Position numbers and translations under genes: made by a program. A stretch of DNA of 61,264 bases, counting the filler, from Candidatus Woesearchaeota archaeon (GTDB lineage: Archaea > Nanobdellota > Nanobdellia > Woesearchaeales > J072): NCBI GenBank assembly GCA_003695265.1. It is 13 parts of 13 records of this genome, joined end to end, with 100 filler letters (N's around TTAATTAATTAA, not from the genome) between each part and the next. Parts side by side here need not be neighbours in the genome. Positions count along the whole stretch, not along the records: positions 15,519 to 24,452 come from RFII01000029.1; positions 24,553 to 28,822 come from RFII01000030.1; positions 28,923 to 31,622 come from RFII01000031.1; positions 31,723 to 34,239 come from RFII01000005.1; positions 34,340 to 36,989 come from RFII01000032.1; positions 37,090 to 40,509 come from RFII01000033.1; positions 40,610 to 44,614 come from RFII01000006.1; positions 44,715 to 48,091 come from RFII01000034.1; 5 more parts are not named here. One strand, written 5' to 3'. This document shows, piece by piece, positions 17,628 through 57,283 of this stretch; within the stretch, counting starts at the first letter, position 1; every line of letters starts with the position of its first letter. Below the pieces are notes generated by a model. It saw only the letters and a list, made by a program, of their open reading frames with translations, did no database searches and was not told where the DNA came from.

Positions 17628-17840
17628 CGCCGCAGCCCGGACTTTCACAAACTTTTGCCAAAGTTTGACCAAATGCAGTTAAGTGAGACATTCACTTCGT
17701 GAAGTCTCACGAACTTCTTGGCAAAAACCTGTTTTGAACCGGGACATCCCAGAGGGAAACCAGCTGTTCGTATTACGCAGATGAAGAGCTTTCACCTGAA
17801 AACTCCAAGCTGGCGCAATACCAGGTTATGCGACTGCGGC
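17628..17840 (-). tRNA. tRNA-Ser(GGA) with canonical intron (17766-17802, 37 nt) and T-loop intron (17642-17732, 91 nt)
   Basis: Acceptor GCCGCAG:CTGCGGC, discriminator G, long variable arm TTTCCCTCTGGGATGT. T-loop BHB TTCA:TGAA with bulges AAA/AGT. Confidence 0.92.
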
Positions 17841-17892
17841 ATTAAATCTGAAAACGAAAATTAAAACGTTTTTATAAAACTTACCATAAAAA

Positions 17893-19125
17893 CTAATAAT
17901 GCGATGGCAGATCAGGAATATCAGGATAACCTTCCCTCCTCAACAATCCGCGAGCCATGGCAATGTACCTTAACATTTCTTTTGCAGTAATGTTCTTTCC
18001 TACTTTTTGGTCTGAAGGTATTTTTGCGCACACCGTGTTAATAACATCGTAAGCTATTTGTTCCATTACGAGTTCAGGCTCCACATCATGTTGCTCAGTA
18101 TAACTTATATATTTCCTAACATTACTAATAACAAGCCTGAAGCTCGGCATGTGGCCTTCAAGCTTGTTAAACCTTGATATACCAAGTGCCTCCCTGAAAT
18201 CGTCTGGAAGCGCGTTTGACCCTTTCCTTATGACCTCTTTCACATCATGTATAAACTCAGCAAGGTTAGATATAACCTGATAATAACGATTTGCCCTCTC
18301 ATTATCTGTTGTTAACTTTTGATCTCCCGAGCCTTTATAAAAGAAATAAGTGTGAAGCTTTCCCTGAGGCTCAACTCTCTCAGCTTTTCCATACTTGTAC
18401 CAATACCCATCATTACCCTTTACAAGGAATCTGAATCTTTTCTTGCCACCTTCATCAATAACTTCTATTGCGCGTTCTTCCATGTCCTCATCAACTATTT
18501 CATCAGTGGTTAATAATCCTGCCTTGACCATTGCAACCCTTATTTGGAAGTCTTTTGGCTGGTCCTCAAAACGAATGTATTCGCACCTGTCAAAAACAGC
18601 TGGCTCTATGTCTTCCAAGTCTGTTCCCGTGCCCGGGTTGTAAGCCATTATGTAACAAGTTTCATCATGCGCTCTCTGCTCTTTTCCATCAATTCTGTAT
18701 GTTGAAGTGTCCTCAAGAATGCTGTTAAGACCTTTTTGTACGCCATGCCTCAGCTTGTTGAACTCATCAAGATAAGCGATTTCGCCACGCTCCATTGCAG
18801 GAACCATCTCTCCTTTTTTGAATCCTGTTGCTGTCGCTTTTTGCTGACCCTCCTCACCAACGGCAATTAAGGTTTCATGGCCTAAAAGGTCAGCAACCTC
18901 TTTTTCAGGCTCACAAACTATTCTGTGAATGGGCTTTCCAAGTATTCTGCTCAGAAACTTTGCCAGTTGTGTTTTTCCAGAACCCGGATCACCACCCATA
19001 AGTATTGGCTTTCTTTGCTCATAAGCCATAATGACGCGCTGGACTTCATCAAAAGGGCCCTCCTGCTGGTTTGCTATATACAAAAACTCCCTACTTGTTT
19101 TATCCTCTAAACTTTCAGCCATCAT
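17893..19125 (-). CDS. MoxR-family AAA+ ATPase (CbbQ/NirQ/NorQ-like)
   Basis: Walker A GDPGSGKT, DLLG, Walker B YLDEFN, sensor MAYNP, FDRC arginine finger. Confidence 0.9.
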   Translation of the reverse strand: MMAESLEDKTSREFLYIANQQEGPFDEVQRVIMAYEQRKPILMGGDPGSGKTQLAKFLSRILGKPIHRIVCEPEKEVADLLGHETLIAVGEEGQQKATATGFKKGEMVPAMERGEIAYLDEFNKLRHGVQKGLNSILEDTSTYRIDGKEQRAHDETCYIMAYNPGTGTDLEDIEPAVFDRCEYIRFEDQPKDFQIRVAMVKAGLLTTDEIVDEDMEERAIEVIDEGGKKRFRFLVKGNDGYWYKYGKAERVEPQGKLHTYFFYKGSGDQKLTTDNERANRYYQVISNLAEFIHDVKEVIRKGSNALPDDFREALGISRFNKLEGHMPSFRLVISNVRKYISYTEQHDVEPELVMEQIAYDVINTVCAKIPSDQKVGKNITAKEMLRYIAMARGLLRREGYPDIPDLPSHY

Positions 19126-19132
19126 TAACACC

Positions 19133-20437
19133 TCATTTTCTTAGTGATTTGTAAATGTCAACTATTTCATAAATTAAAGACTCAACATCGTTGAAAGCCC
19201 GCGCGTAGCTTGCAGGCTCCGACAATGTCCTAAAATAAGATGGCTCTGGGTCAATGGTTAAAAGCACAACCCTTATGCCTGCTTCCTCTGCCTCCTCAAT
19301 CGCCTTTCTCGTGTCCATAATATCATACTCCTCAGAGGTCTCCTTAAGATATTCTGGTCTACCATCAGTGATTATGATTAACACCTTATTTTTCTGCTTT
19401 CTCCTTTCCAAGTCTTCTATTGCTACCCTTATTGCCACTCCGCTAGGTGTTTTACTACCCTCAACATAATCCAAAGAAGCAACAATTTCTTTTTTTTCTT
19501 CATCCCAAGGCTCATAATGCCTCTTTATGTATTCTATCAAATTATGTTCAGAATAGTAATCAGTTTGAAAAGAAGCAACAGAGAAACTATCTCCAAGCTC
19601 AGCTAATGCTTCTGCTAATATAAGCGCAGTATACTTTTCAACTTGAATTCTTGTATGATTTTCAACGCGATAGCGTGTTGAGCTACTCCTGTCAATTAGT
19701 ATAGCAACAGTGTAATCTCTCTCCCGCTCTTTGCTTTTAATGTAAATATCTCCTTTCGGCTCTTTTCCTGAGATAACGCGGGTCACTTCTTCCCTAGCTC
19801 TGCGCTGATGAATCCTTGATCCTCTTTTCGTGCCTTTCACTTTCTCCCTCTTCCTTTTCTTCAATTTTCTCAATTCTTCTCTCACAGATTCTACGAGATG
19901 CCCAAAATTCTCACGGAAGAACTCATAATCCCTTGAAGATCCTTGTGATAGTGTTCTTATAACGTAAGTTGCGCGGTTATGGTAAGACTGCTCTTCATAA
20001 TCCCACTCCCTCATCATTCCTTCTTCCCCATCCTCAAAAGTAGTTTCGCTTGTATCAATATCTAAAAGTGATTCAACGCCTTGCTCTCTGCTTTCATTTT
20101 TTCTTTCCACAAAAATCCTGTCAATTATGTCTTCTGGAGATACGCGCGGAGGTTCTTCAGACTTTATCTTCCCTCTCTTTCCCCCAGAAACTTTCTTCCC
20201 ACCCATTCCTCTTTTTGATTTCTTACCAGTGGAGGGTGGTTGCTGAGATGCTTCTTGCTTCTTTCCGTTTTCTTGACCTACTTGTTGCTCTCCTCCAAGT
20301 CCTCCTTGTACTTTCTGCTGAGATTGTTGTTGTTCTTTCAAGCGTTTGTATTCCTCAAGTATCTCACGAACATCGTCGGCTTCTTCTCTGCCAAACCTCT
20401 TCTTTATGTATCTATATATATTTTTTATAAAGCTCAT
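19133..20437 (-). CDS. von Willebrand factor A domain protein (CbbO/NorD C-terminal-like)
   Basis: MIDAS DRSSS, then T in KTP and D in IITDGRP; the EWDY motif resembles CbbO/NorD proteins. Confidence 0.88.
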   Translation of the reverse strand: MSFIKNIYRYIKKRFGREEADDVREILEEYKRLKEQQQSQQKVQGGLGGEQQVGQENGKKQEASQQPPSTGKKSKRGMGGKKVSGGKRGKIKSEEPPRVSPEDIIDRIFVERKNESREQGVESLLDIDTSETTFEDGEEGMMREWDYEEQSYHNRATYVIRTLSQGSSRDYEFFRENFGHLVESVREELRKLKKRKREKVKGTKRGSRIHQRRAREEVTRVISGKEPKGDIYIKSKERERDYTVAILIDRSSSTRYRVENHTRIQVEKYTALILAEALAELGDSFSVASFQTDYYSEHNLIEYIKRHYEPWDEEKKEIVASLDYVEGSKTPSGVAIRVAIEDLERRKQKNKVLIIITDGRPEYLKETSEEYDIMDTRKAIEEAEEAGIRVVLLTIDPEPSYFRTLSEPASYARAFNDVESLIYEIVDIYKSLRK

Positions 20438-20441
20438 TTTA

Positions 20442-21809
20442 CTATTCTGGATTAAGGTTGTTAGCTATTTCCTCTGCCTTTTGAGGAGAATAACCTCTCT
20501 CTTCCAATTTTCTTCTTACAAATTCTTTCAAGGGATCAAAATCAGCTCCTGAAAAACCACTTATTTGAGATTGTTTGTTATCTTCTTGTTTCTGCTTATC
20601 ACCACGCATTCCTTTTAATTTATTAATCAGCCACTTAACATAGTCTCCAACATTTCTTCCTTTTTTATTTTTAGGACTCTTTGGTTTTGGCGGCTCATAA
20701 CCTTCAGGTAATTCACCTTCCTCCCTCATCCTTTCAATTTCTTTCTCAATATCCTTTTGCTTAACGTCCATTCTCTTCTTTTGTTTTTCATACTCCTTCC
20801 TGAACTTGCTTCTCTTATCCTCAGAAGTGATGTCTTCTTTTCGCTCCAATCTAATTCTTCCCGTGTCAAAGCTGTGCTGAGTCATTGTCTCAGGCATCTC
20901 TGCTTCGCTTAATTCATCACCAAAAGCGTCGTGCAATTTTCTATATATTCTTTCGGCTATTTCAATGCTGTCAAAAACAGTCGCATCTGCTCTCTTTACT
21001 TGCTCAACTTCATCAAGCAACTCCACAAAAAGCTCCGCATAAGACCTTTTACCTTCAGGGCTTTTGTATTTCTTCTTAAGGAACTTTTTCTCACCTCTCG
21101 TTTTTTTGTTAAGCTCACCATGAGTGTATCCTGAGATCGCCTTTTGTGTAAGCATTACAATTAATCGTGTAAAATCACTGTCTATGTTGTCAGTGTCCAT
21201 GATCTTAACAAGGTATCTTTCTGTCTGAACCAATGGTTTTACCCTTTTAGGATCATCAATGAACTCTTTTTTAAACAGGTATTCAACCCGGACATCTTCA
21301 ACAATGTTTAGTATTGTTCTCATTATTTCTGGGCTTTCAAACTGCTGCACATAATCTGAGATATCAATTAGGAAGCTGCCATAACGAATGTGTGCTGCTT
21401 CATGAAATAGACTCCCAACATAAAGAGTTAGATTAGGATCGTTGCCGGCATTTTCTCCCTTTCTTCTTTTATACTTAATAAAGGATATTATTTGAGGCAA
21501 ATAAATTGCCTTGCCGTCTGTGTTTGGAACAGGGTTTCCAGAATGAAGACCAACATTTACTCTTCCAAGAATGCCAAGCTTCTCAATTGAAAGAATTGGG
21601 CTGGCCTCATCAAAGGTTACCCCATAACCCTCTTCTTCTCTTGAGTCAACTTTCTCCAACACATATGGTTCTACATGAATAAACTCACCATCAGGACATT
21701 TTACGTGATAACCCTCACCGCATTCTTTTGTGATAATCCCTTTTGTTCCTTTTTCATAGCCTGATACATCCTCTGTGAGCTTGACTACGTCTCCAATGTT
21801 ATAACTCAT
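20442..21809 (-). CDS. HExxH metallopeptidase-like protein resembling the N-terminal domain of CobT/CbbO-type vWA proteins
   Basis: TDGKAIYLP, HEAAH, NIVEDVRVE; small SH3/KOW-like N-terminus (IGDVVKL...GTKGII). Confidence 0.75.
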   Translation of the reverse strand: MSYNIGDVVKLTEDVSGYEKGTKGIITKECGEGYHVKCPDGEFIHVEPYVLEKVDSREEEGYGVTFDEASPILSIEKLGILGRVNVGLHSGNPVPNTDGKAIYLPQIISFIKYKRRKGENAGNDPNLTLYVGSLFHEAAHIRYGSFLIDISDYVQQFESPEIMRTILNIVEDVRVEYLFKKEFIDDPKRVKPLVQTERYLVKIMDTDNIDSDFTRLIVMLTQKAISGYTHGELNKKTRGEKKFLKKKYKSPEGKRSYAELFVELLDEVEQVKRADATVFDSIEIAERIYRKLHDAFGDELSEAEMPETMTQHSFDTGRIRLERKEDITSEDKRSKFRKEYEKQKKRMDVKQKDIEKEIERMREEGELPEGYEPPKPKSPKNKKGRNVGDYVKWLINKLKGMRGDKQKQEDNKQSQISGFSGADFDPLKEFVRRKLEERGYSPQKAEEIANNLNPE

Positions 21810-21906
21810 TTTACCTAAAATATTTTTTACTCTTAACCCTTATAAATTTTGCTGTTTCTGAGCTAAGCCAACCTAAGAAGATTGGCTTAACTCTCTTTCT
21901 TCATCT

Positions 21907-22689
21907 TCATCCCAAAAGCTCCTCTATCTCTCTCATGTATGTTTCTCCTCCTACATTAATGATAATTTTTCCTCCTTCTTCCCTCAACCCACCTATGCTG
22001 AGGTAGTCCTTTGTTACCTTTGAATCAGTAATCACCTCATGCATTAGCTCGCCATCTTTATTTTCCCATACAAGATAAACAGTGTCAAAGCCGTATGTTG
22101 AGCCGTTCTCTGTTCCGAAGACTATTGCAGCCACATTCCTTCCTGGCAATCTTTTGACGTCCCTAACATAATCATACCCGAGCCTTGGCGCTATTCTCTT
22201 AACAAGGTTTTCTGCTTGTTCAACAAAATCCAAGTCCTTGGGCTCTTCAATTCTTCCATCAAGAGTTATCTTCACTTTTGTTTTTGCAAACGTTCCGCCT
22301 TCAGCTCCTTCCGGAGTGATCTCTGCGATAACCCCATCCTCTAAAAGCTCGCACAAGGAGATAGAGGCGTCTCTGCCACGAGAACCTGTGAGTGCACTAA
22401 CACTGTTTCTTATCCATGCATGATCCTCATAAATCATTCTTGGCGCGTTGTTGCCTTCAACATACCAAACCGAGTACCTGTACTGGTCGCCAAGCCATCC
22501 TTCTCCTTCTGGCGTGCACCTGTCAGTATCTATCTGCTCAAAGAGTACAAAGGCTGCTCTTTCATTCTCAGAATCAATAATCTGGTGATGTATCCTTGTT
22601 TCTTGATACAACGGGTGGTCGTGCTGGTGAGTCCTAACAACATTATCCATTGCTTCCTTCACCTTTCTTTCAAATTCTGATTCAGACAT
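21907..22689 (-). CDS. Hypothetical protein
   Basis: About 260-aa ORF; no family recognised. Confidence 0.7.
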   Translation of the reverse strand: MSESEFERKVKEAMDNVVRTHQHDHPLYQETRIHHQIIDSENERAAFVLFEQIDTDRCTPEGEGWLGDQYRYSVWYVEGNNAPRMIYEDHAWIRNSVSALTGSRGRDASISLCELLEDGVIAEITPEGAEGGTFAKTKVKITLDGRIEEPKDLDFVEQAENLVKRIAPRLGYDYVRDVKRLPGRNVAAIVFGTENGSTYGFDTVYLVWENKDGELMHEVITDSKVTKDYLSIGGLREEGGKIIINVGGETYMREIEELLG

Positions 22690-22774
22690 TTTTATCAACC
22701 CCCTTACTTTGTTCTTTTAGTATCCTTTTTTGGTTCCTTATCCTATTCTTTAACGTTTTCTGACTTATATTTTG

Positions 22775-23326
22775 CTAGCCATCAACCTCTACCTCAAGCC
22801 CATAATTCCTAAGTATTTCAGCGACTTCGTCATGGTTTGCTCTGCCAAAATCTACTGAGCGACCATAAACACTAATTCTTCCGTTTTTGTAGAGTAGCCA
22901 ACCACCTCCCCTTACTTCTAATTTTCTGCCAAGAACTTTTTCGATTCTTTCTCTGATTTGGTAATGCATACCAAGGTCGGGAAAGCAGGCAATAATGTCT
23001 CTTCTCCCATCAGAAAGCCTCAAGTACTTTAATGGTTCTCCCTCTTCAGCAATAAGTACTAATCTCTCTGTTGGTGAATTATGATTGATTAATATTCTAT
23101 ACTTCCCATGATTGTCCTGAAGCTGAGAATCCTTAAGTGCGCTGATGCAATAATCTTCCAACTTCTTATATTTTAAGCTATCAATTGTCTCACGGAATGA
23201 GTCAATAACTCCATATTCTGGGAGTATTCCCCTTACTTCTTTATACTCTCTTACAAAATCCATTATTTCTCCTGCTATTCCTATCCTTGTCAGGGCCTCA
23301 TTTACTAAGTCTGTTAAGCTCATCAT
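22775..23326 (-). CDS. Protein with a C-terminal Janus/Ocnus (PHPT1 phosphohistidine phosphatase)-like domain
   Basis: H..I...GGG.L....I.VYG.S..FG.A.H pattern (MHYQI...RGGGWLLYKNGRISVYGRSVDFGRANH). Confidence 0.65.
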   Translation of the reverse strand: MMSLTDLVNEALTRIGIAGEIMDFVREYKEVRGILPEYGVIDSFRETIDSLKYKKLEDYCISALKDSQLQDNHGKYRILINHNSPTERLVLIAEEGEPLKYLRLSDGRRDIIACFPDLGMHYQIRERIEKVLGRKLEVRGGGWLLYKNGRISVYGRSVDFGRANHDEVAEILRNYGLEVEVDG

Positions 23327-23820
23327 AAAACACCTCTATTGTTACCACTTTGTAATAAGTAATATTTATATAAGAAAGTTTACATCAAAAAATACGTAAA
23401 AACCGAAATATTCATGCATTATAATCATGTTATACTAATTATGACCAATGTATTTCATGAGAGAGGTGTAAAAGATGTGAAGCTTTACTTCAAGGACAAA
23501 ATTATTGCTGTGCTTGAAAAACAGCAGAACAACCTTCACAAATAGCAAAAAAGTGGCATTAATTAGGGATGCTGTTCGTTACAAGATTGAGCGAATGAAA
23601 AATAATAATATCAAAGTAAAAACTCATTTATGCCCATAAGATCATTATTCAGCATTGTTTCAAAAAATGTTTGAATCTTTTAAATCAGATAATAAAAGTA
23701 ATGTTTGAAAGTAGCTTTAAGAAGTATGACACACTGTTGACCTACAAAGAATACAAATATAAAATGTCTCTGTTAAACTTTAGTTCATTGCCTCAATAAT
23801 AAAACATTAGCACTGAAGAA

Positions 23821-24450
23821 TTACCTTGTAAGAATAGATGAAACAAATTGCTCCATTTTATCATAAACTCTCTGGGCTTTTGAATAAAGCTCATCAATCT
23901 TTTCTCCTTTTATCTCTTTAATCTCTCCATGTTCCACTTTTTTATAGTATTCAAAAACCTCCTCGATCATTTGAGAGTAAACTCGAGGTATCTTATTCTT
24001 AAATCTGAGTGCTAATTCCTCATCAACCCTTCTTTGATGAGGAACAGGGTGATTTTCTGCCATTAAAGTAGCTTGGCCTGCACAAATAACTGCATCAGAT
24101 AGTTTTTCTAATAATTGGACTTTCATGGAATTTATTTTTTTTAGTCTTAAAGCAACACTTTTCTTTAGGTTTTCCAAGGATTTTGGAAGTCCTATAACTC
24201 CCCCTCTCCCAGCAATTCTTTTTAGGGGCAACACGAATCCTGCGGGGTCATAAATAGGTATGGAAACCTCCAACTCCCTGAATGTGTTAAGGCTCCCATG
24301 CATTACCTCACTAAAATAATGTGTAATATAATAAAAGCCTGTGTGCAGCTTGACTTTTGCTGTTTTCCTAATAGATTCTTCCTTTCTTTGACAGTCATCC
24401 ATCAAGCTTCTTATGATTTTTTTGCTCGCTTTAATATCATCAACAAGTAT
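23821..24450 (-). CDS. Nucleotidyltransferase-like protein with a helical (HEPN-like) C-terminus, 5' truncated
   Basis: Frame is open to the contig edge and starts ILVDD, like the tail of the NTase DxD strand; PIYDP motif. Confidence 0.55.
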   Translation of the reverse strand: MLVDDIKASKKIIRSLMDDCQRKEESIRKTAKVKLHTGFYYITHYFSEVMHGSLNTFRELEVSIPIYDPAGFVLPLKRIAGRGGVIGLPKSLENLKKSVALRLKKINSMKVQLLEKLSDAVICAGQATLMAENHPVPHQRRVDEELALRFKNKIPRVYSQMIEEVFEYYKKVEHGEIKEIKGEKIDELYSKAQRVYDKMEQFVSSILTR

Positions 24451-24746
24451 CANNNNNNNNNNNNNNNNNNNNNNNNNNNNNNNNNNNNNNNNNNNNTTAA
24501 TTAATTAANNNNNNNNNNNNNNNNNNNNNNNNNNNNNNNNNNNNNNNNNNNNATTAAATAAACAACAATAATAGCACCTATTACTTTCAGAATTCCTCTC
24601 TTTTTCTTAGCGGTTTCCCTCATTTTTAATTAGTATCATGTCTTTACTTATATAATATTTTTTCTTATATCAACCAATAAAACAATTAATACAACAAATT
24701 TTTTTTTTGCGTTAAGTTTTTATATGAAGCGCTTATTTTGAGATTT

Positions 24747-25043
24747 ATGCAAAGCATTTCAGTAAGGGAAATGATTAATTATTCTGAAGGTGGGATCATC
24801 AGTAAGGTTGTTTCTAAAGGTGTAATTGAAGTAACTCTCTTTTGCATGGCTGCAGGCACTTCAATTGGTGAGCACACCTCAACTAAGAAAGGCTGCGTGT
24901 ATGTTATTGAGGGAAAAGGAGTTTTTAATCTTGATGGCAAAGACATTGTTATGGAAGAAGGTGTTATTATTGAGATAGCCAGGAATGCAAAGCATTCGCT
25001 GAAGGCAGAGAAAAACACTAGTTTTTTGCTCTTTTTAACATGA
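24747..25043 (+). CDS. Cupin-domain protein
   Basis: GTSIGEH...YVIEGKG...NAKHSLKA. Confidence 0.85.
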   Translation: MQSISVREMINYSEGGIISKVVSKGVIEVTLFCMAAGTSIGEHTSTKKGCVYVIEGKGVFNLDGKDIVMEEGVIIEIARNAKHSLKAEKNTSFLLFLT

Positions 25044-25169
25044 AAAAATATTCATTGTAAGAATTATGAAAAATTAAGGGTTAAAACGTGATGTAACACT
25101 TATTATTGATCCTTTCACTGGACATTTGCCGTCGCACTCCTTATTAATAAAAAAACCTTATTCTCATTC

Positions 25170-26249: not shown

Positions 26250-26250
26250 T

Positions 26251-27702: not shown

Positions 27703-27724
27703 CAAATGCAAACATTTTTAATAG

Positions 27725-48285: not shown

Positions 48286-48541
48286 GCCCCGTTAGTGTAG
48301 TCCGGCAAGCTTTTACCCATAACAATTGAAAAGGTAAGAGTTCGGCAACAATCATACAGCCCTTTCGAGGCTGTGACCCGGGTTCAAAACAATCCTTTCG
48401 CCGATTGTGCTCAGAAATCTTAGAAGATTTCTGGCACCCCAAAACGCTTTGCGTTTTGATGGGGAGCAATGTGCGAAGTGCGCTCACTCCGCTCGCTTAG
48501 CCCCCTTCAACAAAAGGTTTGTGAAAGTCCCGGACGGGGCA
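48286..48541 (+). tRNA. tRNA-Glu(TTC) with D-loop intron (48307-48348, 42 nt) and T-loop intron (48389-48527, 139 nt)
   Basis: GCCCCGTTAGTGTAGTCCGGC|...CGGCAA|CAATCATACAGCCCTTTCGAGGCTGTGACCCGGGTTCAAA|...TGAAAG|TCCCGGACGGGGCA. Confidence 0.92.
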
Positions 48542-49609: not shown

Positions 49610-49619
49610 TTTAGAACGC

Positions 49620-50228
49620 TCATTTCAGGCTGCCTTTCATCATGTCCTCAATTTCTTTTTGCGTTGGCGGCTTTGTGTCCCTCAGTTTTTTAGGAGGCGG
49701 CTCTGGCAGCCACTTGTCATAAAAAGCAATTATCACTCCATTTAATTCTTTTCTTTCAGCCAAGTCAGCTCCGAGAATGTTCGCGTTTGTGCCCAAGCCG
49801 TTCTGCCCCATTTCGTCAAGCATGCTCCTTGTCTCTTCACCAACTCTTGCGAACAAGCAGTACCCGAATTTGTCTGAGACTGGAACATTAAACTCGAAGT
49901 ATCCCATCGGCGAGCCTTGGCTGGGCTTCCATTCTGGGACTTGGTAAGGCTTAAAATAGTCTAATTTGTCGCTTAGCTCATTCCACACATCAAGGTGGTT
50001 TTGCTCTAATCTTCTTGCGTCTTCCTCATTTCCAGGATCAAAGTACTCTTCACCAATCGCAACTTTAATAAAAACACTTGCTGGAAATAATGGGCGCGTG
50101 TATTTGCCTTCATTGTAACCCATTACAAAGCCGCTTATCATAGCGTTTTCCTTCTTGTTCTCAAATCTTCTTCTGTTTTTTTCCCTCAGTTTTCTAAGGA
50201 GTTTATTATCCAATGTTTCGTCTTCCAT
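49620..50228 (-). CDS. Hypothetical protein
   Basis: 202-aa ORF in a three-gene operon. Confidence 0.7.
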   Translation of the reverse strand: MEDETLDNKLLRKLREKNRRRFENKKENAMISGFVMGYNEGKYTRPLFPASVFIKVAIGEEYFDPGNEEDARRLEQNHLDVWNELSDKLDYFKPYQVPEWKPSQGSPMGYFEFNVPVSDKFGYCLFARVGEETRSMLDEMGQNGLGTNANILGADLAERKELNGVIIAFYDKWLPEPPPKKLRDTKPPTQKEIEDMMKGSLK

Positions 50229-50233
50229 TTTTT

Positions 50234-51322
50234 TTAAGCGTTGTAAGAGGACCTCTCAGCTGCCATGTTTGCTCGGTAATTGCTTGACTGAACGTCCTCA
50301 ACCAGTCTTTGGAGCTGGCTGCTCTGTGTTCCTATCAAAACGTTTGTGCTTGAAGCACCGTTTATTATGCTACCCATTCTTTCTAGGCCTTCAACGAGTG
50401 TGTTGTGTACTTCTCTCGTGTAGTCTGACAATATTGTGACGCCTTCGTTGATCGCGGCAACTGCTTGGACAAGGTCTCCTATTGATTGGTATGTTCTCTT
50501 TGTCTTCCAGAGGGTATCCTCAATAAGTCTTGCCTTGCTTGATATTCTTTCTGCTGTGAAGAGGGCTATAGTTAATAGTCTTTCCATGTTTTCAAGATAA
50601 TTTTCTTCGTCAGACAGGTGAGCTCTCTTGTCTGTTAATATGAGATAATCTTTTTCTAATTGTGACAATCTTCTTTCAAGAGCGCGGTGTTTTCTCTTAG
50701 CTTGGAAATAGCCTGGGTCTGATTCGCTCATGCCCTTAAGCTTGTCAGTTAACGCGTTTAGCTCTGCTATTGTCTCTGGTATTACTGATTCCGCGTATTC
50801 CCTGTTCTTGTGTGTTCTTTCGTTTGACACTGATATTTCATCAACATGGCCTTGCACTGACGCAAGTTCGCGCCTAGAAGTTGAGATTATGTTACTAAGA
50901 TAATAATTCATGTCACCAAGGTTTATAAGCTGGACTTCAAACAACTCATCGATTGTTGTGCTAGGAGCTTGTTTTCCTAAAAATTTTGTGTAAAAAGCAT
51001 TTCTTGCGGCAATCCATGCTCTGTAGGGAGCAGAGACTCCGCTTCTGACGATCTGCTCAAATTTTTCTTGGACAGCCTGCATTTTCTCAACAGTTTCTGC
51101 AAGCTCTTTGTAGCCTGTGCCTGTTATTGCTTTTTTCCGCGTGCTCTCCATAATCCTGTTTCTTGCGTCTTGGACTTGGCTTACTAATGATCTTTGCTCG
51201 CTTTCTATTGGGATTATTGCAGGCATTCCTGTTTGCGTTTTCTTATGGCTTGCTGTTTTTGCTGATGATGTCCTGTTTTTCTCTTTTAGTTTTGAGAGCA
51301 GCCTGTTATTTATTTCATTCAT
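50234..51322 (-). CDS. Hypothetical long coiled-coil protein
   Basis: 362-aa helical ORF with an RBS-like GGTGAG upstream. Confidence 0.72.
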   Translation of the reverse strand: MNEINNRLLSKLKEKNRTSSAKTASHKKTQTGMPAIIPIESEQRSLVSQVQDARNRIMESTRKKAITGTGYKELAETVEKMQAVQEKFEQIVRSGVSAPYRAWIAARNAFYTKFLGKQAPSTTIDELFEVQLINLGDMNYYLSNIISTSRRELASVQGHVDEISVSNERTHKNREYAESVIPETIAELNALTDKLKGMSESDPGYFQAKRKHRALERRLSQLEKDYLILTDKRAHLSDEENYLENMERLLTIALFTAERISSKARLIEDTLWKTKRTYQSIGDLVQAVAAINEGVTILSDYTREVHNTLVEGLERMGSIINGASSTNVLIGTQSSQLQRLVEDVQSSNYRANMAAERSSYNA

Positions 51323-51472
51323 ATCAACTCACCATATAAAAATAATGAAAACAAAGTGAATTTTTTTAATAAGCATTGCCCAAAAAAAGCTGGAATCTAT
51401 TCGTAAAAATCAGAGATTTTACGTCTTTCTTGATAAACTATTTAAAGAAGTGTGTTTTTCAAAGTCAAGTTC

Positions 51473-51560
51473 GGGCCTGTAGTCTAGTAGCAAATGGTTG
51501 CTCATTTGATACGCAGGCCATGTGGGGTGTAAGCAAAGCTTAACCCCACGGTAAAAATTT
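51473..51560 (+). ncRNA. Structured leader of tRNA-Val beginning with a 16-nt duplicate of the tRNA 5' end
   Basis: GGGCCTGTAGTCTAGT at 51473-51488 and 51561-51576. Hairpins GGCCTG/CAGGCC and GTGGGG/CCCCAC. TATA-like TTTAAA at 51441-51446. Confidence 0.6.
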
Positions 51561-51647
51561 GGGCCTGTAGTCTAGTGGTTATGACGTCGCCCTTACAATT
51601 ATTAATTAGAAAGGCGGAGGTCCCCGGTTCGAGTCCGGGCGGGCCCA
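51561..51647 (+). tRNA. tRNA-Val(TAC) with canonical intron (51598-51611, 14 nt)
   Basis: Complete cloverleaf after removing ATTATTAATTAGAA. Confidence 0.92.
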
Positions 51648-51703
51648 TCAAAAATTATAAATAGTAGGTAAAAAGTTTTTAATTAAAATTTTAATTAAAT
51701 TTT

Positions 51704-51873
51704 GCGGCAGTAGTCCAGTGGTTAAGATACGGCCTTGCCATGCTTGGGCGTAAAGAGGCTGTGACCCGGGTTCAAAACAGATTTTTGCCAAAATCTGGTA
51801 AAAAGCGTTTAAGTGAGACGTTCACTGCGTGAAGTCTCACGAACCTCAACGGTAAAATCTGTTGAAAGTCCCG
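51704..51873 (+). tRNA. tRNA-Gly(GCC) with canonical intron (51741-51755, 15 nt) and T-loop intron (51777-51868, 92 nt); 3' acceptor strand cut by contig end
   Basis: GCGGCAGTAGTCCAGTGGTTAAGATACGGCCTTGCCA|...|AGGCTGTGACCCGGGTTCAAA|...TGAAAG|TCCCG; BHB helix TTGC:GTAA. Confidence 0.9.
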
Positions 51874-52081
51874 NNNNNNNNNNNNNNNNNNNNNNNNNNN
51901 NNNNNNNNNNNNNNNNNTTAATTAATTAANNNNNNNNNNNNNNNNNNNNNNNNNNNNNNNNNNNNNNNNNNNNATATTATAGAGCAATAAACGGATTAAA
52001 ATATATTATACAGACAGTCTTATGATTTTCTTAAATTTCAGTTAATTTTTTAAAGAAAAATTATTTTCTTTGATTCTTAAT

Positions 52082-52200
52082 GGGCTCGTGGTCTAACGGT
52101 ATGACGCTCCATTGGCTGTGGGGAGACTCCGGGTTCAATAACAGCGTTCAGAGTTCTGAACGCAGAACGCTAAACGCTGTTGAAAGTCCCGGCGAGTCCA
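52082..52200 (+). tRNA. tRNA-Ala(GGC) with T-loop intron (52140-52186, 47 nt)
   Basis: G3:U70 pair; strict BHB GGG-TTCA-ATA-ACAGCGTT / AACGCTGT-TGAA-AGT-CCC. Confidence 0.92.
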
Positions 52201-52269
52201 TTTTCTTCTTATTAGATAAATATTTAAAAACAATAATTCACTCCCAACATTGAGAAGTTTGACAAAAAT

Positions 52270-52456
52270 GGGCTTGTGGTCTAATGGTATGACGCCGCCT
52301 TCGCATCCTAGAGAAAAAGGCGGAGACTCCGGGTTCAATAACAGCGTTCGGAGCGCGGTGTTCAGAACGCAGCAAGCGCACTCAGCACTGCTGGGTTCTA
52401 TCGCTGAGCACTGATAACTGATTAGCTGAACGCTGTTGAAAGTCCCGGCAAGTCCA
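52270..52456 (+). tRNA. tRNA-Ala(CGC) with canonical intron (52306-52317, 12 nt) and T-loop intron (52340-52442, 103 nt)
   Basis: G3:U70 pair; same strict T-loop BHB as Ala(GGC). Confidence 0.92.
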
Positions 52457-52461
52457 TAAAA

Positions 52462-53016
52462 ATGAGAATAATCTACCTGACAGGAAACAAGAACAAGTTT
52501 CGAGAAGCTCAAGGAATTTTATCAGGTCATGAGCTCGAACTAAAGAAAATTGACCTTGATGAGATTCAAGAAATTAATATTGATAAAATAATAATCCACA
52601 AGGTTAAGCAAGGCTACAATATCATTAAAAAACCATTAATTGTTGATGACACAGGAATTTTTTTTGAGGGACTTAATGGCCTGCCAGGAGGCCTGGTAAA
52701 ATGGTTTCTTGAAAGGCTTGGGCCGGGCGGACTTTATGAGCTGGTAAAGGATAAAAGCACAAATGCTCATGTCGAATGCTGCGTCGGATACACAAACGAC
52801 GGCATAAATGTTCATGTGTTCAAAGGCATTGTTTATGGGAAAATTGTCAGTCCTCGCGGAAAAGAAGGTTTTCATTTTGACAAAATATTTGTTCCAGAAG
52901 GCTATGATAAAACATACAGCCAAATGAGTGCTGAAGAAAAAAACAAGATAAGCCACAGATGCATTGCACTTAAAAAATTAGAGAAATTCCTCAGAGGTGA
53001 GAAAAATGGGAAATGA
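52462..53016 (+). CDS. rdgB: Non-canonical purine NTP pyrophosphatase (RdgB/HAM1)
   Basis: TGNKNK, EIQ, DDTG, GFHFD.IF, KNKISHR. Confidence 0.94.
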   Translation: MRIIYLTGNKNKFREAQGILSGHELELKKIDLDEIQEINIDKIIIHKVKQGYNIIKKPLIVDDTGIFFEGLNGLPGGLVKWFLERLGPGGLYELVKDKSTNAHVECCVGYTNDGINVHVFKGIVYGKIVSPRGKEGFHFDKIFVPEGYDKTYSQMSAEEKNKISHRCIALKKLEKFLRGEKNGK

Positions 53017-53416
53017 TTGTATTTTTTGCAAAATTGTGAAAGGCGAACTGCCATGCTCAAAGCTTTATGAGGACGAAATGTTTTTAGCGTTTCTTGATTT
53101 ATACCCTGTAAAAAAAGGCCACGCATTAGTGATTCCAAAAGAGCATTACGAAACTATTTTTGACGTTCCAGAAAACGTTCTAGAAAAATACCTTTCAGTT
53201 ATTAAGAAAGTGGCAGTAGCTGTAAAAAAAGGCACAGATGCAAAAGGCATTAACCTCGCGCAGGCAAACCACAAAGCAGCAAACCAGGCAATCCCACACA
53301 TTCATTTTCACGTTATACCAAGAGATGAAGGGGATGGCCTTGGAAGCTGGCCGCAGGGCAAATATGAAGACAGGGAAATGGACGAATTCAGGGAAAAAAT
53401 AGCAGAACACATCTGA
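53006..53416 (+). CDS. HIT family hydrolase
   Basis: CIFCKI, GHALVIPK, HIHFHVIPR. Confidence 0.95.
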   Translation: MGNDCIFCKIVKGELPCSKLYEDEMFLAFLDLYPVKKGHALVIPKEHYETIFDVPENVLEKYLSVIKKVAVAVKKGTDAKGINLAQANHKAANQAIPHIHFHVIPRDEGDGLGSWPQGKYEDREMDEFREKIAEHI

Positions 53417-53462
53417 TTTTAGCAAAACCTTTTTATAAGTTTTATAATTTTTTGATTGTCAC

Positions 53463-53601
53463 GCCGGTGTAGCTCAGCCTGGAGGTTGTTTCGGGCAATT
53501 AGAGCGCTAGACTCATATTAAATGAGTGATGAGGCAAATGCCGATGAATTAGCATTTAGCGCGAAATCTAGAGGTCCCGGGTTCAGATCCCGGCACCGGC
53601 A
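53463..53601 (+). tRNA. tRNA with CAT anticodon (probably elongator Met), D-loop intron (53483-53498, 16 nt) and canonical intron (53518-53565, 48 nt)
   Basis: GCCGGTGTAGCTCAGCCTGG|AGGTTGTTTCGGGCAA|TTAGAGCGCTAGACTCATA|...|ATCTAGAGGTCCCGGGTTCAGATCCCGGCACCGGCA. G1:C72 argues against initiator; Ile2 is not formally excluded. Confidence 0.88.
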
Positions 53602-53644
53602 CTTTTTCTAAAAATTTATAAAGGAAAACCACAACTGATTGGTT

Positions 53645-54589
53645 ATGATTCGCGCTTTTGCGTACCATAAAAAGAGGTTCAAGGAGCTGAAAGAATTATC
53701 TTCTGTAAACGGTAATTTGTGGATTTCAGTTATCTCTCCGAAGAAGCACGAAATTGAGAAGTTAGAAAAAGTTTTTGGCCTGCACCCAACAACGGTAGAG
53801 GATGTCTCAACCCACCAAACAAGGATAAAATACGAAGAGTTTGACGAATACACATTAATAGTTTTTAGCGGGATAAAAGAGATTACTGGAACAAAATCTG
53901 ATTGGCGCTCAATTTATTTCATTCTCGGCAAGAACTTCCTCATAACGATTTGCGAAGAGCCTTTCGACACTATCAATAACTTTCTTTCTGAGTATAAAAA
54001 GATAGAGCCTGTCTTAAAAAAAGGAGCTGACTTAATGCTTTACCACATTCTTGACGCAGAAATAGACAAGTATTTAGATATAAGAGAAAAACTTTTTGAA
54101 GACTTGATAAACGTGGAAAACCAAATTCTAAGAAACCCTGATAAAGAGCTTCTTGACAAATTGTTCAAGAAAGAAATATTAACCCTTGATATAAAGCAGA
54201 AAGTTGAGTCTGTAGCAGAGGTTTGCTTCAGGCTGCAGAAAGCTTCTGAAAAATTTATTAATAATTCTCTTTTGCCTTATTATAGGGATATCTATGACCA
54301 TATCCTCAGGGTTGATGAGCGGCTGAGAAACATTTTAGACAGGTTGGACAGCATGGGCAATGCTTACATGTCCATGGTGTCAAACAAGATGAATGAGACC
54401 ATAAGGGTTCTTACCATAATCACTGTTATTATTATGCCACTGACCTTTATTACAGGCTTTTACGGGATGAATATTCTTCTCCCAATCCAAAGGAACCCTT
54501 TGGCATGGATTATTCTCTCTGTGCTTATGCTTGTTCTGATGCTTATAATGGTTCTTATTTTTAAGAGAAAGAATTGGATTGGGAAGTAA
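53645..54589 (+). CDS. corA: Magnesium/cobalt transporter CorA
   Basis: LHP...ED, YYRDIYDH, PLTFITGFYGMN, two C-terminal TMs. Confidence 0.95.
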   Translation: MIRAFAYHKKRFKELKELSSVNGNLWISVISPKKHEIEKLEKVFGLHPTTVEDVSTHQTRIKYEEFDEYTLIVFSGIKEITGTKSDWRSIYFILGKNFLITICEEPFDTINNFLSEYKKIEPVLKKGADLMLYHILDAEIDKYLDIREKLFEDLINVENQILRNPDKELLDKLFKKEILTLDIKQKVESVAEVCFRLQKASEKFINNSLLPYYRDIYDHILRVDERLRNILDRLDSMGNAYMSMVSNKMNETIRVLTIITVIIMPLTFITGFYGMNILLPIQRNPLAWIILSVLMLVLMLIMVLIFKRKNWIGK

Positions 54590-54590
54590 G

Positions 54591-54729
54591 CGCCAGCGCC
54601 CGGACTTTCATCAGCGGTCAGAACGCCGCCGCTTTGACCGCTGTCTTTGAACCGGGACATCCCAGAGGGAAAGCGGTTATCTCTAAAATTATTCGAGACC
54701 GCCGCAATACCAGATTATGCGACGCTGGC
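54591..54729 (-). tRNA. tRNA-Ser(CGA) with canonical intron (54679-54691, 13 nt) and T-loop intron (54605-54645, 41 nt)
   Basis: Acceptor GCCAGCG:CGCTGGC, discriminator G, same variable arm as Ser(GGA); T-loop intron ends TGAAAG. Confidence 0.92.
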
Positions 54730-54767
54730 GCAGCAAGACGTAACCTGAACTTACTTAAATATTTTTT

Positions 54768-55511
54768 TTATGCTAAACTAATATTTTTTCCTGAAAGTTT
54801 CTGACCTTTCAGAACATTTTCTAGGCAGTACTCCTTAATATCATCAATACGAATCTTGTTACAGAAAGAAGTGTTAAGTGTTCTAATAGCAACGTTTGAA
54901 TTGCATATGTCCATCCAAGGACCTATTGACATCTGATTGCATATCTTGTCATCCCTATTATTTATTGCCAATCTTATGAAACATTTGTTTCTTTGCATGC
55001 TGTCCTTTATTTTGACGCATACTATCGTGCTGTTTGCCTTTTTCGCAAGTTCTATAAAGCATTGCTCTTGCATGTGTTCTAAAGGTATTTGCTCGCAGAG
55101 TTGGATATCTTCAAAAACTTGTGCTAAGTCTCTCAGACAGACCCCTTTCCAGTAATCATCACTTATCAGCTTGCATGACTCTGTATCATTTGTTTCAAAA
55201 GAAATCTCTGAAATGCAATAATAAAATGTTTTATTATTTTTTATATTGCTGCAAATAGAGCTGTTTTTTTTCATCAATGCTACTTCTGAGAGGCAGGCGT
55301 CTCTGAAATCCTCATTCTTCATTAAGGAGCAAACTGACTCGTTTTTTGATGAAATGGCCTGTTTTCTTAGTGAGTTATCACGGCTTTGCTGTTCTAGAAC
55401 ACTTATTTTCCTTGGCAGGAAAAGCAGAGCTAGAAATATTAAGATTAACAAAAATATTAATATGTTTGTTTTTACAGAATCCACACTCTTATTTTTATTC
55501 TTTTTGGGCAT
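54768..55511 (-). CDS. Membrane-anchored protein with about seven Cys-pair repeats
   Basis: N-terminal TM; about 26-aa repeat C..I.......C...(L/V)A. Confidence 0.75.
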   Translation of the reverse strand: MPKKNKNKSVDSVKTNILIFLLILIFLALLFLPRKISVLEQQSRDNSLRKQAISSKNESVCSLMKNEDFRDACLSEVALMKKNSSICSNIKNNKTFYYCISEISFETNDTESCKLISDDYWKGVCLRDLAQVFEDIQLCEQIPLEHMQEQCFIELAKKANSTIVCVKIKDSMQRNKCFIRLAINNRDDKICNQMSIGPWMDICNSNVAIRTLNTSFCNKIRIDDIKEYCLENVLKGQKLSGKNISLA

Positions 55512-55613
55512 ATAAACCATTCTTTCTGATGTTATTAATAAATATTTCTGCATTCTAATAATTAGATAATTTTATATACCAAATAATATTTTATCAAACC
55601 TAAGGTGGTGTAA

Positions 55614-56504
55614 ATGAGAAAATTAATTATTGTCATTTCTTTGCTTGTGGTCCTGTTTGGATGCACAGCTCCTAAAACAGTACTCGAGCCTGACAAGCAT
55701 ATTACTGCTGATAATAATACCAAAAAAATATCTGAAGAAGACATAATTGAAGACCAAGAAAAGCCAAAAAAAGTTGAGGAAGAAAATCCGGTTGAGGAAA
55801 AAATATCAAAAGAGGTATCAGAAGAATCGCTCTCAAAAGAGGAACCCAGCCAGTTTCAACTGCGTGATATCCAGTATGAGCTTGATTCAACAGGCGAATC
55901 TTTTAAGCTTACAAATCTTAGACTAATAATTGATAATCCAACAGACAAGAATCTTGACACGACTGCAAAAATATACGTTGATAACGAGCTGTATGATGAG
56001 ATTAATCCTCACAGCATTGAGGAATTCAGCACTCTTAACCAGACTTTCACGATAAGTGGTGTAAAGTTGCCTTTCTCAGAGAACAAAGAAATAAAAGTGA
56101 AGATTTATGAAGGAAATCGCGTGATCTCTGAGCTGAAACAATTGCTGAAACTTTCCTCTGGCCCGAGTGTTAACGCAAACATTACAAAAATAGGTTTCAG
56201 AGTGGAAGATGATAAATTCTGGGTGGAAAACGTAACAATAAGGGTTGAGAACCACGTAGGAGACCACCTACTCTGGACTGCAAAATTCTACGCTTTTGAT
56301 GAGTCAGATCCAAGCGCTCTTAAAAGCATTCCTTATGACGAGTTTGAGCTTCCTTTAATATTAAGTAATCAGACTTTAGAAGAGACTTTTCCAGTTGAGG
56401 GAAGAAGTATTGGAAATCTTGGAGCAAATAAGACATTTATACTCAGGCTTTATGATAAGAATGTTCTGAAGAAAGAGGTCACATTATATCAGGTGGTTGG
56501 ATGA
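55614..56504 (+). CDS. Putative lipoprotein with two similar beta-rich domains
   Basis: Lipobox-like LFGC; repeated TAK(I/F)Y...YDE...NQT pattern. Confidence 0.72.
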   Translation: MRKLIIVISLLVVLFGCTAPKTVLEPDKHITADNNTKKISEEDIIEDQEKPKKVEEENPVEEKISKEVSEESLSKEEPSQFQLRDIQYELDSTGESFKLTNLRLIIDNPTDKNLDTTAKIYVDNELYDEINPHSIEEFSTLNQTFTISGVKLPFSENKEIKVKIYEGNRVISELKQLLKLSSGPSVNANITKIGFRVEDDKFWVENVTIRVENHVGDHLLWTAKFYAFDESDPSALKSIPYDEFELPLILSNQTLEETFPVEGRSIGNLGANKTFILRLYDKNVLKKEVTLYQVVG

Positions 56505-57001
56505 GTTTAAAATTTGTTGTCTTGCTTTTATTTGTCATAGGATGCTCATCCAACATGCAAAAAGAATTAACTTTTGATGATTTTAAGGAAAAAATAGTTC
56601 CAGAGATGAAACAATTAACCCAGGACATTTCAGAAGTAGAAGCAAAATACAAGGAAATAATTGAGACTAAGGACATTGACGAATGTAACCATATAGGTAA
56701 TATCTCCCAAAGCTCAGCAATACTCACAGCATACAGGGAAGTGGGCGTTAACTTTTACAATGATAATAAGGAATACTTTGACAAGTATTGTGACCAAACC
56801 CCTGGCTGTGACGTTGTCGAAACGAATGTTGGTGTTTGGGAGGAGAACATTGACCTTTACAATGATTTTATGGACAAAAATAATGATATCCTAAAAGGAT
56901 GCGGCTACACGTTCACAATGGAAGAACTTCTTGACGAGGCAAGGGTTATCGTTGATGATTACTTGGAGGAAAGAGGGGATATTTTAAATGTTTCTTCTTA
57001 A
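56501..57001 (+). CDS. Putative lipoprotein
   Basis: Lipobox-like VIGC; acidic mature region. Confidence 0.7.
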   Translation: MSLKFVVLLLFVIGCSSNMQKELTFDDFKEKIVPEMKQLTQDISEVEAKYKEIIETKDIDECNHIGNISQSSAILTAYREVGVNFYNDNKEYFDKYCDQTPGCDVVETNVGVWEENIDLYNDFMDKNNDILKGCGYTFTMEELLDEARVIVDDYLEERGDILNVSS

Positions 57002-57058
57002 TGTTTCCTGCTTGACAACTTAATAATGTTTTTGATTACTAAATATGAAAATTATGAA

Positions 57059-57283
57059 TGCCCCCGTCGGGACTTTCACCAGATTCTGCCGTTTGAAGTT
57101 TGTGAGACTTCACGCAGTTAACATCTCACTAAAACGCTTTTTACCAGATTTTGGCAAAAAATCTGTTTTGAACCCGAGTCATTGCCTTTCTCCAAACACT
57201 TGCGAGAGGGCAATATGATTGTTGCCGAGCTTTTACCTTTTTAATGGTTTTGGTAAAAGTTTGCCGGACTACACCACGGGGGC
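57059..57283 (-). tRNA. tRNA-Glu(CTC) with three introns: D-loop (57222-57262, 41 nt), canonical (57188-57202, 15 nt), T-loop (57073-57166, 94 nt)
   Basis: Spliced product GCCCCCGTGGTGTAGTCCGGC-CAATCATATTGCCCTCTCG-AGGCAATGACTCGGGTTCAAA-TCCCGACGGGGGCA folds as a standard cloverleaf. Confidence 0.92.

Follow-up and report, generated by a model that had tools for sequence, protein, structure and literature searches.

The question raised by the locus described here is how one intron can occupy the T loops of several archaeal transfer RNA (tRNA) genes and, in one of them, run in the reverse direction. The window, meaning the whole stretch of DNA that was analysed (61,264 nt, filler included), derives from a genome bin of Candidatus Woesearchaeota archaeon (GCA_003695265.1) with 103 contigs, a size of 1.06 Mb, 40% GC, a completeness of 94.6% and a contamination of 0.6%. 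Thirteen of its contigs (C74-C85 and C88) make up the stretch. The element is a short cassette found at position 59/60 of tRNA-Gly(GCC), tRNA-Glu(CTC), tRNA-Gly(TCC) and tRNA-Ser(GGA). It belongs to a dispersed cassette family of DPANN archaea (of the Woesearchaeota/Nanoarchaeota type), the copies of which occupy parts of stable RNAs that are cut away, namely introns of tRNA and 16S rRNA with bulge-helix-bulge (BHB) signals, leaders and trailers, or the insertion-tolerant P3 element of RNase P RNA.

Because the stretch consists of joined contigs (linkers N44-TTAATTAATTAA-N44, with joints, e.g., at 3258-3357 and 51874-51973), strands are arbitrary between loci on separate contigs, and orientation was scored solely relative to each host RNA. 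A preliminary description of this DNA had placed the Gly and Ser tRNAs on opposite strands; the opposite orientation of the cassette relative to the tRNA holds, but the strands as such are meaningless here. The positions and sequences that it gave for the four introns were read again and all agree. The features in question are listed below, orientation A being the cassette in tRNA sense and orientation B the cassette antisense to the tRNA; anticodons of genes with several introns were read by hand and are tentative.

17628..17840, minus strand: tRNA-Ser(GGA) gene with 37/38 and 59/60 introns, from a T-arm/acceptor scan; called by ARAGORN as Ser(gga) with one canonical intron after removal of 91 nt.
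17642..17732, minus strand: 59/60 intron of tRNA-Ser(GGA), orientation B.
17642-17647, minus strand: sense tail TGAAAG of the Ser(GGA) intron, outside the inverted unit.
17683..17712, plus strand (the cassette's own strand): core hairpin of the Ser copy, with outer stem GTGAGAC/GTCTCAC, 1-nt bulge and inner stem TTCAC/GTGAA, from the core alignment.
51704..51873, plus strand: 5' part of tRNA-Gly(GCC) with 37/38 and 59/60 introns; the contig ends after 5 nt of the 3' exon, which continues at the start of contig C65.
51777-51868, plus strand: 59/60 intron of tRNA-Gly(GCC), orientation A; these 92 nt are 100% common to the end of contig C84 and the start of C65.
57060..57283, minus strand: tRNA-Glu(CTC), anticodon read by hand, with D-arm, 37/38 and 59/60 introns.
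57073-57166, minus strand: 59/60 intron of tRNA-Glu(CTC), orientation A, aligned end to end with the Gly(GCC) intron.
3358..3539, minus strand: 5' part of tRNA-Gly(TCC) with a D-loop intron; the start of the contig cuts the 59/60 intron.
3358-3391, minus strand: first 34 nt of the 59/60 intron of tRNA-Gly(TCC), orientation A.
3540..3615, plus strand: leader copy abutting the 5' end of tRNA-Gly(TCC), orientation B (nhmmer E 4.8e-14; 60.9 bits with covariance model R1).

The Gly(TCC) intron, which had been described as truncated, is indeed cut in the stretch, but the cut is a contig end and the remainder lies on contig C26.

The Ser(GGA) intron is the same element inverted. Compared plus strand to plus strand, 17647-17732 and 51777-51862 are identical without gaps at 67 of 86 positions, which reproduces exactly an earlier manual count. 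In tRNA sense, the best ungapped match between the Gly and Ser introns is 34/85, the Gly(GCC) intron agrees with its own reverse complement at 32/86 positions, and shuffled controls (n = 2000) had a mean identity of 29 and a maximum of 38. Global alignment scores show the same pattern, with 37 for Gly and Ser in antisense (core ungapped) against 13 in sense (gapped), 72 for Gly and Glu in sense, and -4 for Gly against its own reverse complement. When nine sense copies, Ser not among them, were made into a profile, this matched the antisense strand of the Ser intron over profile positions 2-85 with 58.8 bits (E 3.7e-16) and its tRNA-sense strand with only 6.4-7.1 bits, so that self-complementarity of the hairpins can be rejected as the cause of the match, in agreement with the earlier claim. 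An inversion of everything but the 6-nt tail fits all the asymmetric features, namely the flanks TTAA...GAAC, the placing of a small terminal hairpin and the side on which the 1-nt bulge lies. The Ser core hairpin is the top match of covariance model R1 (63.7 bits). To produce the inversion as such, the intron would only have to flip between the 16-bp inverted repeats at its ends.

The inverted form has relatives. Over its whole length the Ser(GGA) intron matches an antisense T-loop intron of tRNA-Ser(TGA) in another genome (locus L025) at 74/89 positions, and the flipped form is therefore old or transferable rather than a private accident; the notion of a recent jump is not supported. A grouping of the antisense copies of this genome into one subfamily was tried and rejected, as a 17-copy tree was unresolved and the three changes needed were equalled by 34 of 500 shuffles.

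How both orientations could be tolerated within a tRNA gene is suggested by the predicted folds. Minimum free energy (MFE) structures of T arm plus intron for Gly(CCC) and Thr(TGT) consist, in order, of the T stem, AGU, the helix UUCA:UGAA, AAA and a closing helix, that is, a 3-nt bulge AGU on the 3' strand and a 3-nt bulge AAA on the 5' strand with 4 bp between them, this short helix being formed by the T-loop bases UUCA and the intron tail. As modelled, the 59/60 splice signal is a strict hBHBh' (helix-bulge-helix-bulge-helix) motif and not a relaxed one. The MFE fold of Ser(GGA) leaves UUCA:UGAA open; the same pairing is available by reading, with a closing helix of 16 bp. The splice signal is identical in both orientations because the inverted ends form the closing helix and the tail lies outside the inverted unit, which bears out the earlier proposal that these ends close the helix either way while TGAAAG stays in tRNA sense. 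Of 24 candidates from which the T-loop insert was removed in silico, 23 were recognised by ARAGORN as tRNAs, Ser(gga), Gly(ccc) and Thr(tgt) among them, with anticodon calls that are unreliable for genes with additional non-canonical introns. The genome encodes the splicing endonuclease EndA (contig C17; PF01974, 101 bits) and the ligase RtcB (PF01139, 587 bits), and the cassette introns would be removed and the exons joined by these two enzymes.

The cassette is 70-90 nt long, non-coding, and consists of a short terminal hairpin, a spacer of about 14 nt and a bulged hairpin of 30 nt with the conserved core GTG-N4-N-TTCAC-N3-GTGAA-N4-CAC-GA; copies in T-loop introns are closed by a terminal inverted repeat (TIR). 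Across 68 distinct copies, 97.7% of the cells that should pair do so, and all four free pairs of the outer stem covary, with 94 double changes, a level reached by none of 500 shuffles. The inner stem TTCAC/GTGAA and the flanks are near invariant, and the bases of the loop and bulge vary. Conserved TIRs of the kind used to define transposons were not found, the ends of the cassette being ACAGATTTT.., AACTGTTTACG.., TGCCTGCTACACTAGG.. or AATAATTGG.. according to lineage. An Rfam search over the cassette gave no match at E values up to 10, recognising only the tRNA, RNase P and small subunit (SSU) rRNA hosts, and K-turn, C/D box, H/ACA and hammerhead motifs were not seen by eye. Two possible roles were considered and discarded. 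As a promoter the cassette is not convincing, its AT-rich stretches lying, by eye, at varying distances from tRNA 5' ends; and pairing in trans between copies of the two orientations, like that of split-tRNA leaders, is contradicted by mismatches between the outer stems of leader and intron copies and by the completeness of the tRNAs behind antisense leaders.

Within this genome the covariance model gave 18 matches, all in or beside stable-RNA genes, and BLAST and a profile HMM agree. Nine genes carry sense T-loop introns, namely Gly(GCC), Gly(TCC), Gly(CCC), Glu(CTC), Val(CAC), Thr(TGT), Leu(TAG), Cys(GCA) and a second Leu-like tRNA, the Gly(GCC) intron being counted as two of the 18 matches as its gene spans the C84/C65 break. 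The others are the antisense T-loop intron of Ser(GGA), a sense D-loop intron (C33:162-218), antisense leader copies at the 5' ends of tRNA-Gly(TCC) and tRNA-His and before an RNA on contig C27 in which Rfam found nothing, two tandem sense cassettes on C32, and a copy in RNase P RNA. Another long T-loop intron, with a weaker profile match, lies at the starts of C33, C72 and C91. Copies with E < 1e-3 away from stable-RNA genes were not found in this genome. The T-loop introns of the genome that lack the cassette, those of Ser(TGA) and Ser(CGA) among them, belong to another hairpin family. On C32 (3340-3598) each of the tandem cassettes follows a 21-nt copy of the tRNA 5' end and a complete tRNA comes after them, a layout that is a possible footprint of insertion, recombination or loss of a D-loop intron. 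Copying of T-loop introns has probably been recent in at least one case, since those of Gly(GCC) and Gly(CCC) are identical at 90/92 positions and far more alike than the genes themselves, the rest of which agree at 58/87 positions and have unrelated 37/38 introns.

The copy in RNase P RNA, which is antisense to its host, lies outside the context of introns altogether. The host RNA was recognised by Rfam at 19390-19079 of L001 with 101.6 bits (locus G000:C44 19079-19460, minus strand). In the relatives G114, G098 and G001 the sequence GTAGGGAAGC-ACTTAAC (P1-P2) is followed by a P3 of 14, 36 and 49 nt, respectively, and then by GGAAAGTCC; in this genome the same P1-P2 is followed by a whole antisense cassette of 104 nt in the place of P3, absent from 3/3 relatives examined. 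The 3' part of this cassette matches the Ser intron at 40/41 nt, and a CTTAAC repeat overlaps the core's own flank. By reading, no BHB motif surrounds the RNase P cassette, and it more likely stays in the RNA as an enlarged P3, as far as can be judged from sequence.

A wider search, which the preliminary description had suggested, found the core in related DPANN genomes, in intronic and non-intronic positions and in both orientations. An exact pattern for the 30-nt core, which favours one consensus, had 117 matches, 94 of them in metagenome contigs and the other 23 in representative genomes of species. In 102 of the 117 the outer stem forms three or more of its four unconstrained pairs, where about 15% is expected by chance; the remaining 15 are mostly bacterial coding sequence, and three of the 102 (L033, L039 and L047) look like chance matches in bacterial or coding DNA and were dropped before alignment. 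Record titles of the core loci name Woesearchaeota, Nanoarchaeota or simply 'archaeon', and several metagenome-assembled genomes are labelled Methanosarcinales. One contig of 2.2 kb is labelled Bdellovibrio sp. (L035, RFKI01000264.1) and carries an archaeal-type tRNA-Ser(GCT) with a T-loop intron nearly equal to that of Thr(TGT) in this genome; it is probably a mis-binned DPANN contig. Contexts, assigned by automatic scan and reading and counted as loci, not as independent events, were as follows.

T-loop intron, sense: about 42 loci (30 strict, 10 with a variant tail, 2 by reading).
T-loop intron, antisense: 8 loci (L025, L036, L053, L056, L063, L074, L082, L115), in Ser, Lys and other tRNAs, seven of them from one lineage.
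16S rRNA intron, sense, at two positions: 17 loci, four confirmed by Rfam and the others by flanking motifs.
37/38 intron: 1 locus (L102).
Leaders, trailers, copies behind TATA-like boxes and others: the remainder, by reading.

Three loci first assigned as SSU introns in antisense by loose motifs (L097, L112, L117) showed no rRNA flanks on reading. The 16S rRNA of the present genome is absent from its assembly, and rRNA introns are visible only in other genomes. A BLAST search of 40 relatives with the 92-nt intron gave two weak partial matches. Of 151 genomes sampled from the order, the covariance model detected the element in 27, and of the 115 that are at least 90% complete in 17, under strict filters and in fragmented bins; copy numbers are 18 here, 14 in genome G047 and 1-5 elsewhere.

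Several of these loci show the cassette in different states at one site or in new ones. The 59/60 site of tRNA-Ser(TGA) exists with an intron that has the core in sense (L022), in antisense (L025) or not at all (this genome, C52). In G047 and other genomes copies of either orientation follow the 3' end of a tRNA at 0-11 nt or immediately precede a 5' end. The order found on C32, a tRNA 5' fragment (17-21 nt), a cassette and a whole tRNA, recurs in G110 (L148), G128 (L151) and G042 (L152), and the leader copy at Gly(TCC) has the same arrangement in another genome (L041). Further copies are a D-loop intron in G065, a 16S intron in G098 and a 53/54 intron in G047. At L139 (G047:C10) an antisense core begins no more than 2 nt after a tRNA and is followed, about 100 nt on, by a 14-17-nt copy of the tRNA 3' end and a sense cassette, an arrangement of two oppositely oriented copies around a duplicated tRNA end. 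The cassette is not tied to position 59/60, because at L025 the T stem runs directly into the intron, with no TTCAAA before it, and at L136 (G047:C32) the intron stands between the T stem and an intact TTCAAAT (53/54). A complete tRNA and a cassette at L051/L038 precede the apparent tail and 3' exon of another tRNA, and the interval between lacks a matching 5' T arm; this may be a split or rearranged tRNA gene.

Other inserts in the same genome deserve mention. Intron-bearing genes are poorly seen by standard tools, ARAGORN and Rfam together recognising one tRNA in the stretch, and only 8 tRNA genes of the whole genome score above the Rfam tRNA cut-off because most of them bear such inserts, generally two or three to a gene; annotators should be aware that insert-bearing tRNA genes escape standard calling. 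The segment 51560-51649 was called by ARAGORN as a tRNA for 'Asn, anticodon att' and by Rfam as a tRNA with 57 bits, and its unusual anticodon probably arose because a gene with an intron was parsed wrongly. The tRNA genes at 52082-52199, 52270-52455, 54592-54729 and 48286-48540 have T-loop introns, 41-139 nt long, that belong to a different hairpin family, with palindromes of the GTTCAGAACGC type; elsewhere in the genome this family also fills D-arm introns of class II tRNAs. The D-loop intron of Gly(TCC) (about 3420-3525, minus strand) has a third module, similar to GGTTACGCTCGGTCGACACGCAAGAG. In another lineage (L036, L062, L115) this module again lies next to the core hairpin, within T-loop introns that are long and antisense.

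To account for all of this, the reading preferred here, which we would give about an even chance, is that of a non-autonomous, selfish or nearly neutral cassette that is copied and flipped at the level of DNA and neutralised by RNA processing. Events of a recombination type would copy the cassette between tolerant sites in stable-RNA genes, and it would flip between its own inverted ends. A BHB signal composed of T-loop bases, the 6-nt sense tail and the inverted ends would be equally good in either orientation, so that splicing by EndA and RtcB, trimming of RNA ends or structural tolerance might render the cassette harmless, with no function needed in the RNA. Copying at the DNA level is inferred because of the near-identical Gly introns, the RNase P insertion, the three states of the Ser(TGA) site, the duplicated tRNA ends and the bursts in copy number, and in this respect the earlier claim that a DNA-level event is needed is upheld. 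The same description had spoken of mobile DNA; in a broad sense this stands, given the leaders in both orientations, trailers, D-loop and 16S introns and the RNase P P3, but a transposon in the strict sense is not supported, as the termini vary between lineages and target duplications are missing from intron copies.

A number of observations weigh against the preferred reading. A selfish repeat with no factor to recognise it should not keep a covarying core of 30 nt across distant lineages, and here it is the terminal helix and small hairpin that differ between lineages while the core is kept, the reverse of what is seen in TIR transposons. Y1 HUH transposase (PF01797), TnpB (PF07282), reverse transcriptase (PF00078) and LAGLIDADG_3 (PF14528) genes were not found in this 94.6%-complete genome, DDE transposases and tyrosine and serine recombinases not having been searched for, and Y1 genes show no association with the element, being present in 11 of the 27 genomes that have it and in 45 of the 124 that do not (cross-tabulated by hand). 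No copy was found within or beside a protein gene in this genome. Introns are strongly biased in orientation, with about 42 sense and 8 antisense copies in T loops and 17/17 in sense in 16S rRNA among the loci of the wider search. Some of the sites seem old and stable: the Gly(TCC) leader is shared by two genomes, one 16S position occurs in at least seven sequence clusters, and the antisense Ser intron is also shared. Finally, a search of sequencing runs matched the locus in no RNA run that might have shown splicing.

It is the deep conservation of the core with no known enzyme, the long-lived sites and the sense bias that make a functional hairpin a serious rival. The core would then be a binding site, as RNA or as extruded DNA, for a conserved factor that acts on stable-RNA precursors in their processing, chaperoning, disposal or regulation; both orientations would work as the stems read alike on either strand, and copies would persist through use. 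We regard this as possible, though well short of an even chance. The pairing and four covarying pairs of the 68 copies would be expected of it, as would the confinement of 18/18 copies in this genome to stable-RNA genes, the orthologous persistence at the Gly(TCC) leader, in the Ser intron and at the 16S position between GGATTAGAT and ACCC, and the lone copies that stand, by reading, behind TATA-like boxes (L045, L084, L108, L117). Less easily explained are the presence of the element in so few genomes of the order, even among the most complete, a copy number that ranges from 1 to 18, loop and bulge bases that are free to vary, and paralogous Ser tRNAs that do without a cassette. In antisense copies the flanks and the side of the bulge follow the DNA strand rather than the RNA, Rfam holds no such family, and inspection by eye showed neither a K-turn nor a C/D motif; correction of one arm by the other is a further possible source of covariation in a palindrome. 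The selfish cassette and the functional hairpin are not mutually exclusive. It could be speculated, with similar reserve, that DPANN archaea possess an undescribed mobilisation system which recognises the conserved bulged hairpin as its handle and would insert small cassettes, oriented either way, into stable-RNA genes at their ends and loops, with BHB splicing and end-trimming providing the tolerance.

A derivative of a classical DNA transposon is improbable. This could be a miniature inverted-repeat transposable element (MITE), or a hairpin of the repetitive extragenic palindrome (REP) or palindrome-associated transposable element (PATE) type, moved as single-stranded DNA by a HUH enzyme acting in trans (IS200/IS605 or a REP-associated tyrosine transposase, RAYT). 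Known MITEs, REP/RAYT systems and PATEs of IS200/IS605 are likewise small hairpin-forming elements without coding capacity that exist in many copies, in either orientation and with a strand-specific asymmetry, and the bulged hairpin, covarying stems and strand-specific flanks of the cassette are of this kind; Y1 transposases are, moreover, common in the order (56 of 151 genomes). However, the cassette has no conserved ends, these varying with lineage, its two hairpins are dissimilar, its intron copies show no target duplication, although some leader and trailer copies are flanked by 14-21-nt copies of tRNA ends, and in this genome it avoids ordinary intergenic DNA in favour of stable-RNA genes. 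The lack of co-occurrence with Y1 extends to both of the genomes richest in copies (18 and 14), which have none, and the enzyme partner envisaged in the preliminary description, for which HUH was the first candidate, finds no support among the families searched.

Slightly less probable again is an ordinary intron family homogenised by gene conversion, with one old inversion of the Ser intron between its own ends and no new sites. The 16-bp inverted repeat in the fold of the Ser intron would permit such a flip, and the antisense Ser intron common to another genome fits a single old event. Small inversions between hairpin arms are well known, for example in chloroplast non-coding DNA and through template switching at quasipalindromes, and need no dedicated enzyme; they would account for the flip in Ser but not for spread to other sites. 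This explanation is already contradicted by the non-intron copies and fails on the leaders and trailers in both orientations, the D-loop, 37/38, 53/54 and 16S introns and the RNase P P3, as well as on antisense copies in T-loop introns of tRNAs other than Ser, such as Lys(TTT) at L063. That the inverted Ser intron is an artefact of assembly has next to no probability: the bin is fragmented and the assembly was broken by the repeat itself, several contig ends lying within copies (C84 end/C65 start, C75 start/C26 end and the starts of C33, C72 and C91), but a 769-nt Logan contig from a second assembler, probably of the same sample and so an independent assembly rather than independent data (one DNA run, from a hot-spring metagenome, matches the locus), covers 17300-17841 and with it the whole intron with no difference, the Ser copy is only 78% identical to the other copies and hence is not a misjoined one, and homologous antisense Ser introns exist in other genomes.

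Among described systems, the closest are the transposed BHB introns of Thermoproteales (Fujishima et al. 2010), in which similar introns occur across tRNAs by a mechanism that the accessible parts of PMC4090602 and PMC4033280 give as unknown and presumably at the DNA level. Near-identical introns in tRNAs of different identity, non-canonical positions and a spread limited by the need for a BHB, as far as these parts describe them, are common to both, and the Gly, Glu, Val, Thr, Leu and Cys genes found here to share a cassette intron are a case of this kind. Unlike the Thermoproteales introns, the present element is a defined two-hairpin cassette with a core found across distant DPANN archaea, also in 16S introns, leaders, trailers and RNase P P3, and in both orientations, a matter on which the available portions of the two papers are silent. 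In Caldiarchaeum subterraneum a tRNA gene is disrupted by an integrating element, and intron gain and the scattering of fragments were attributed to DNA integration and recombination, according to the part of the report that was available (Sugahara et al. 2012, PMC3293823). A copy of a tRNA 5' fragment upstream of an intact gene, with foreign DNA between them, is seen in both cases, but the Caldiarchaeum element, at 1.8 kb, encodes a recombinase, whereas the cassette has about 70 nt, no open reading frame and no demonstrated link to an integrase. Non-canonical BHB introns at 59/60 are also known from DPANN archaea and ARMAN in connection with EndA types of broad specificity, enzyme specificity being the subject of the portions consulted (PMC3239211, PMC5829648); the T-loop position and removal by EndA, the latter presumed here, are shared, while the shared intron cargo and the strict motif are not. 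A 2026 census of Asgard archaea, in the sections available, offers no general route for intron arrival and does not mention orientation (10.64898/2026.10.13.758758). In the open-access literature searched, no description was found of an orientation-flipped intron cassette, nor of a core common to tRNA and rRNA introns, leaders and RNase P.

Reviews have termed the mechanism by which introns arrive in archaeal tRNA and rRNA genes unknown, at least in the accessible parts of one (PMC4090602). Here, one cassette is seen in many states at once: as an intron at four tRNA positions, as a 16S intron, as a leader or trailer and within RNase P RNA, in both orientations and in recent and old copies. It is because of this diversity of states that the birth, flipping and turnover of introns can be traced by comparative genomics, and the cassette provides a concrete handle on how archaeal tRNA introns spread. 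Should the conserved hairpin prove to be the handle of a mobilisation system, it would represent a new class of mobile element and an observable route for the birth of archaeal tRNA and rRNA introns.

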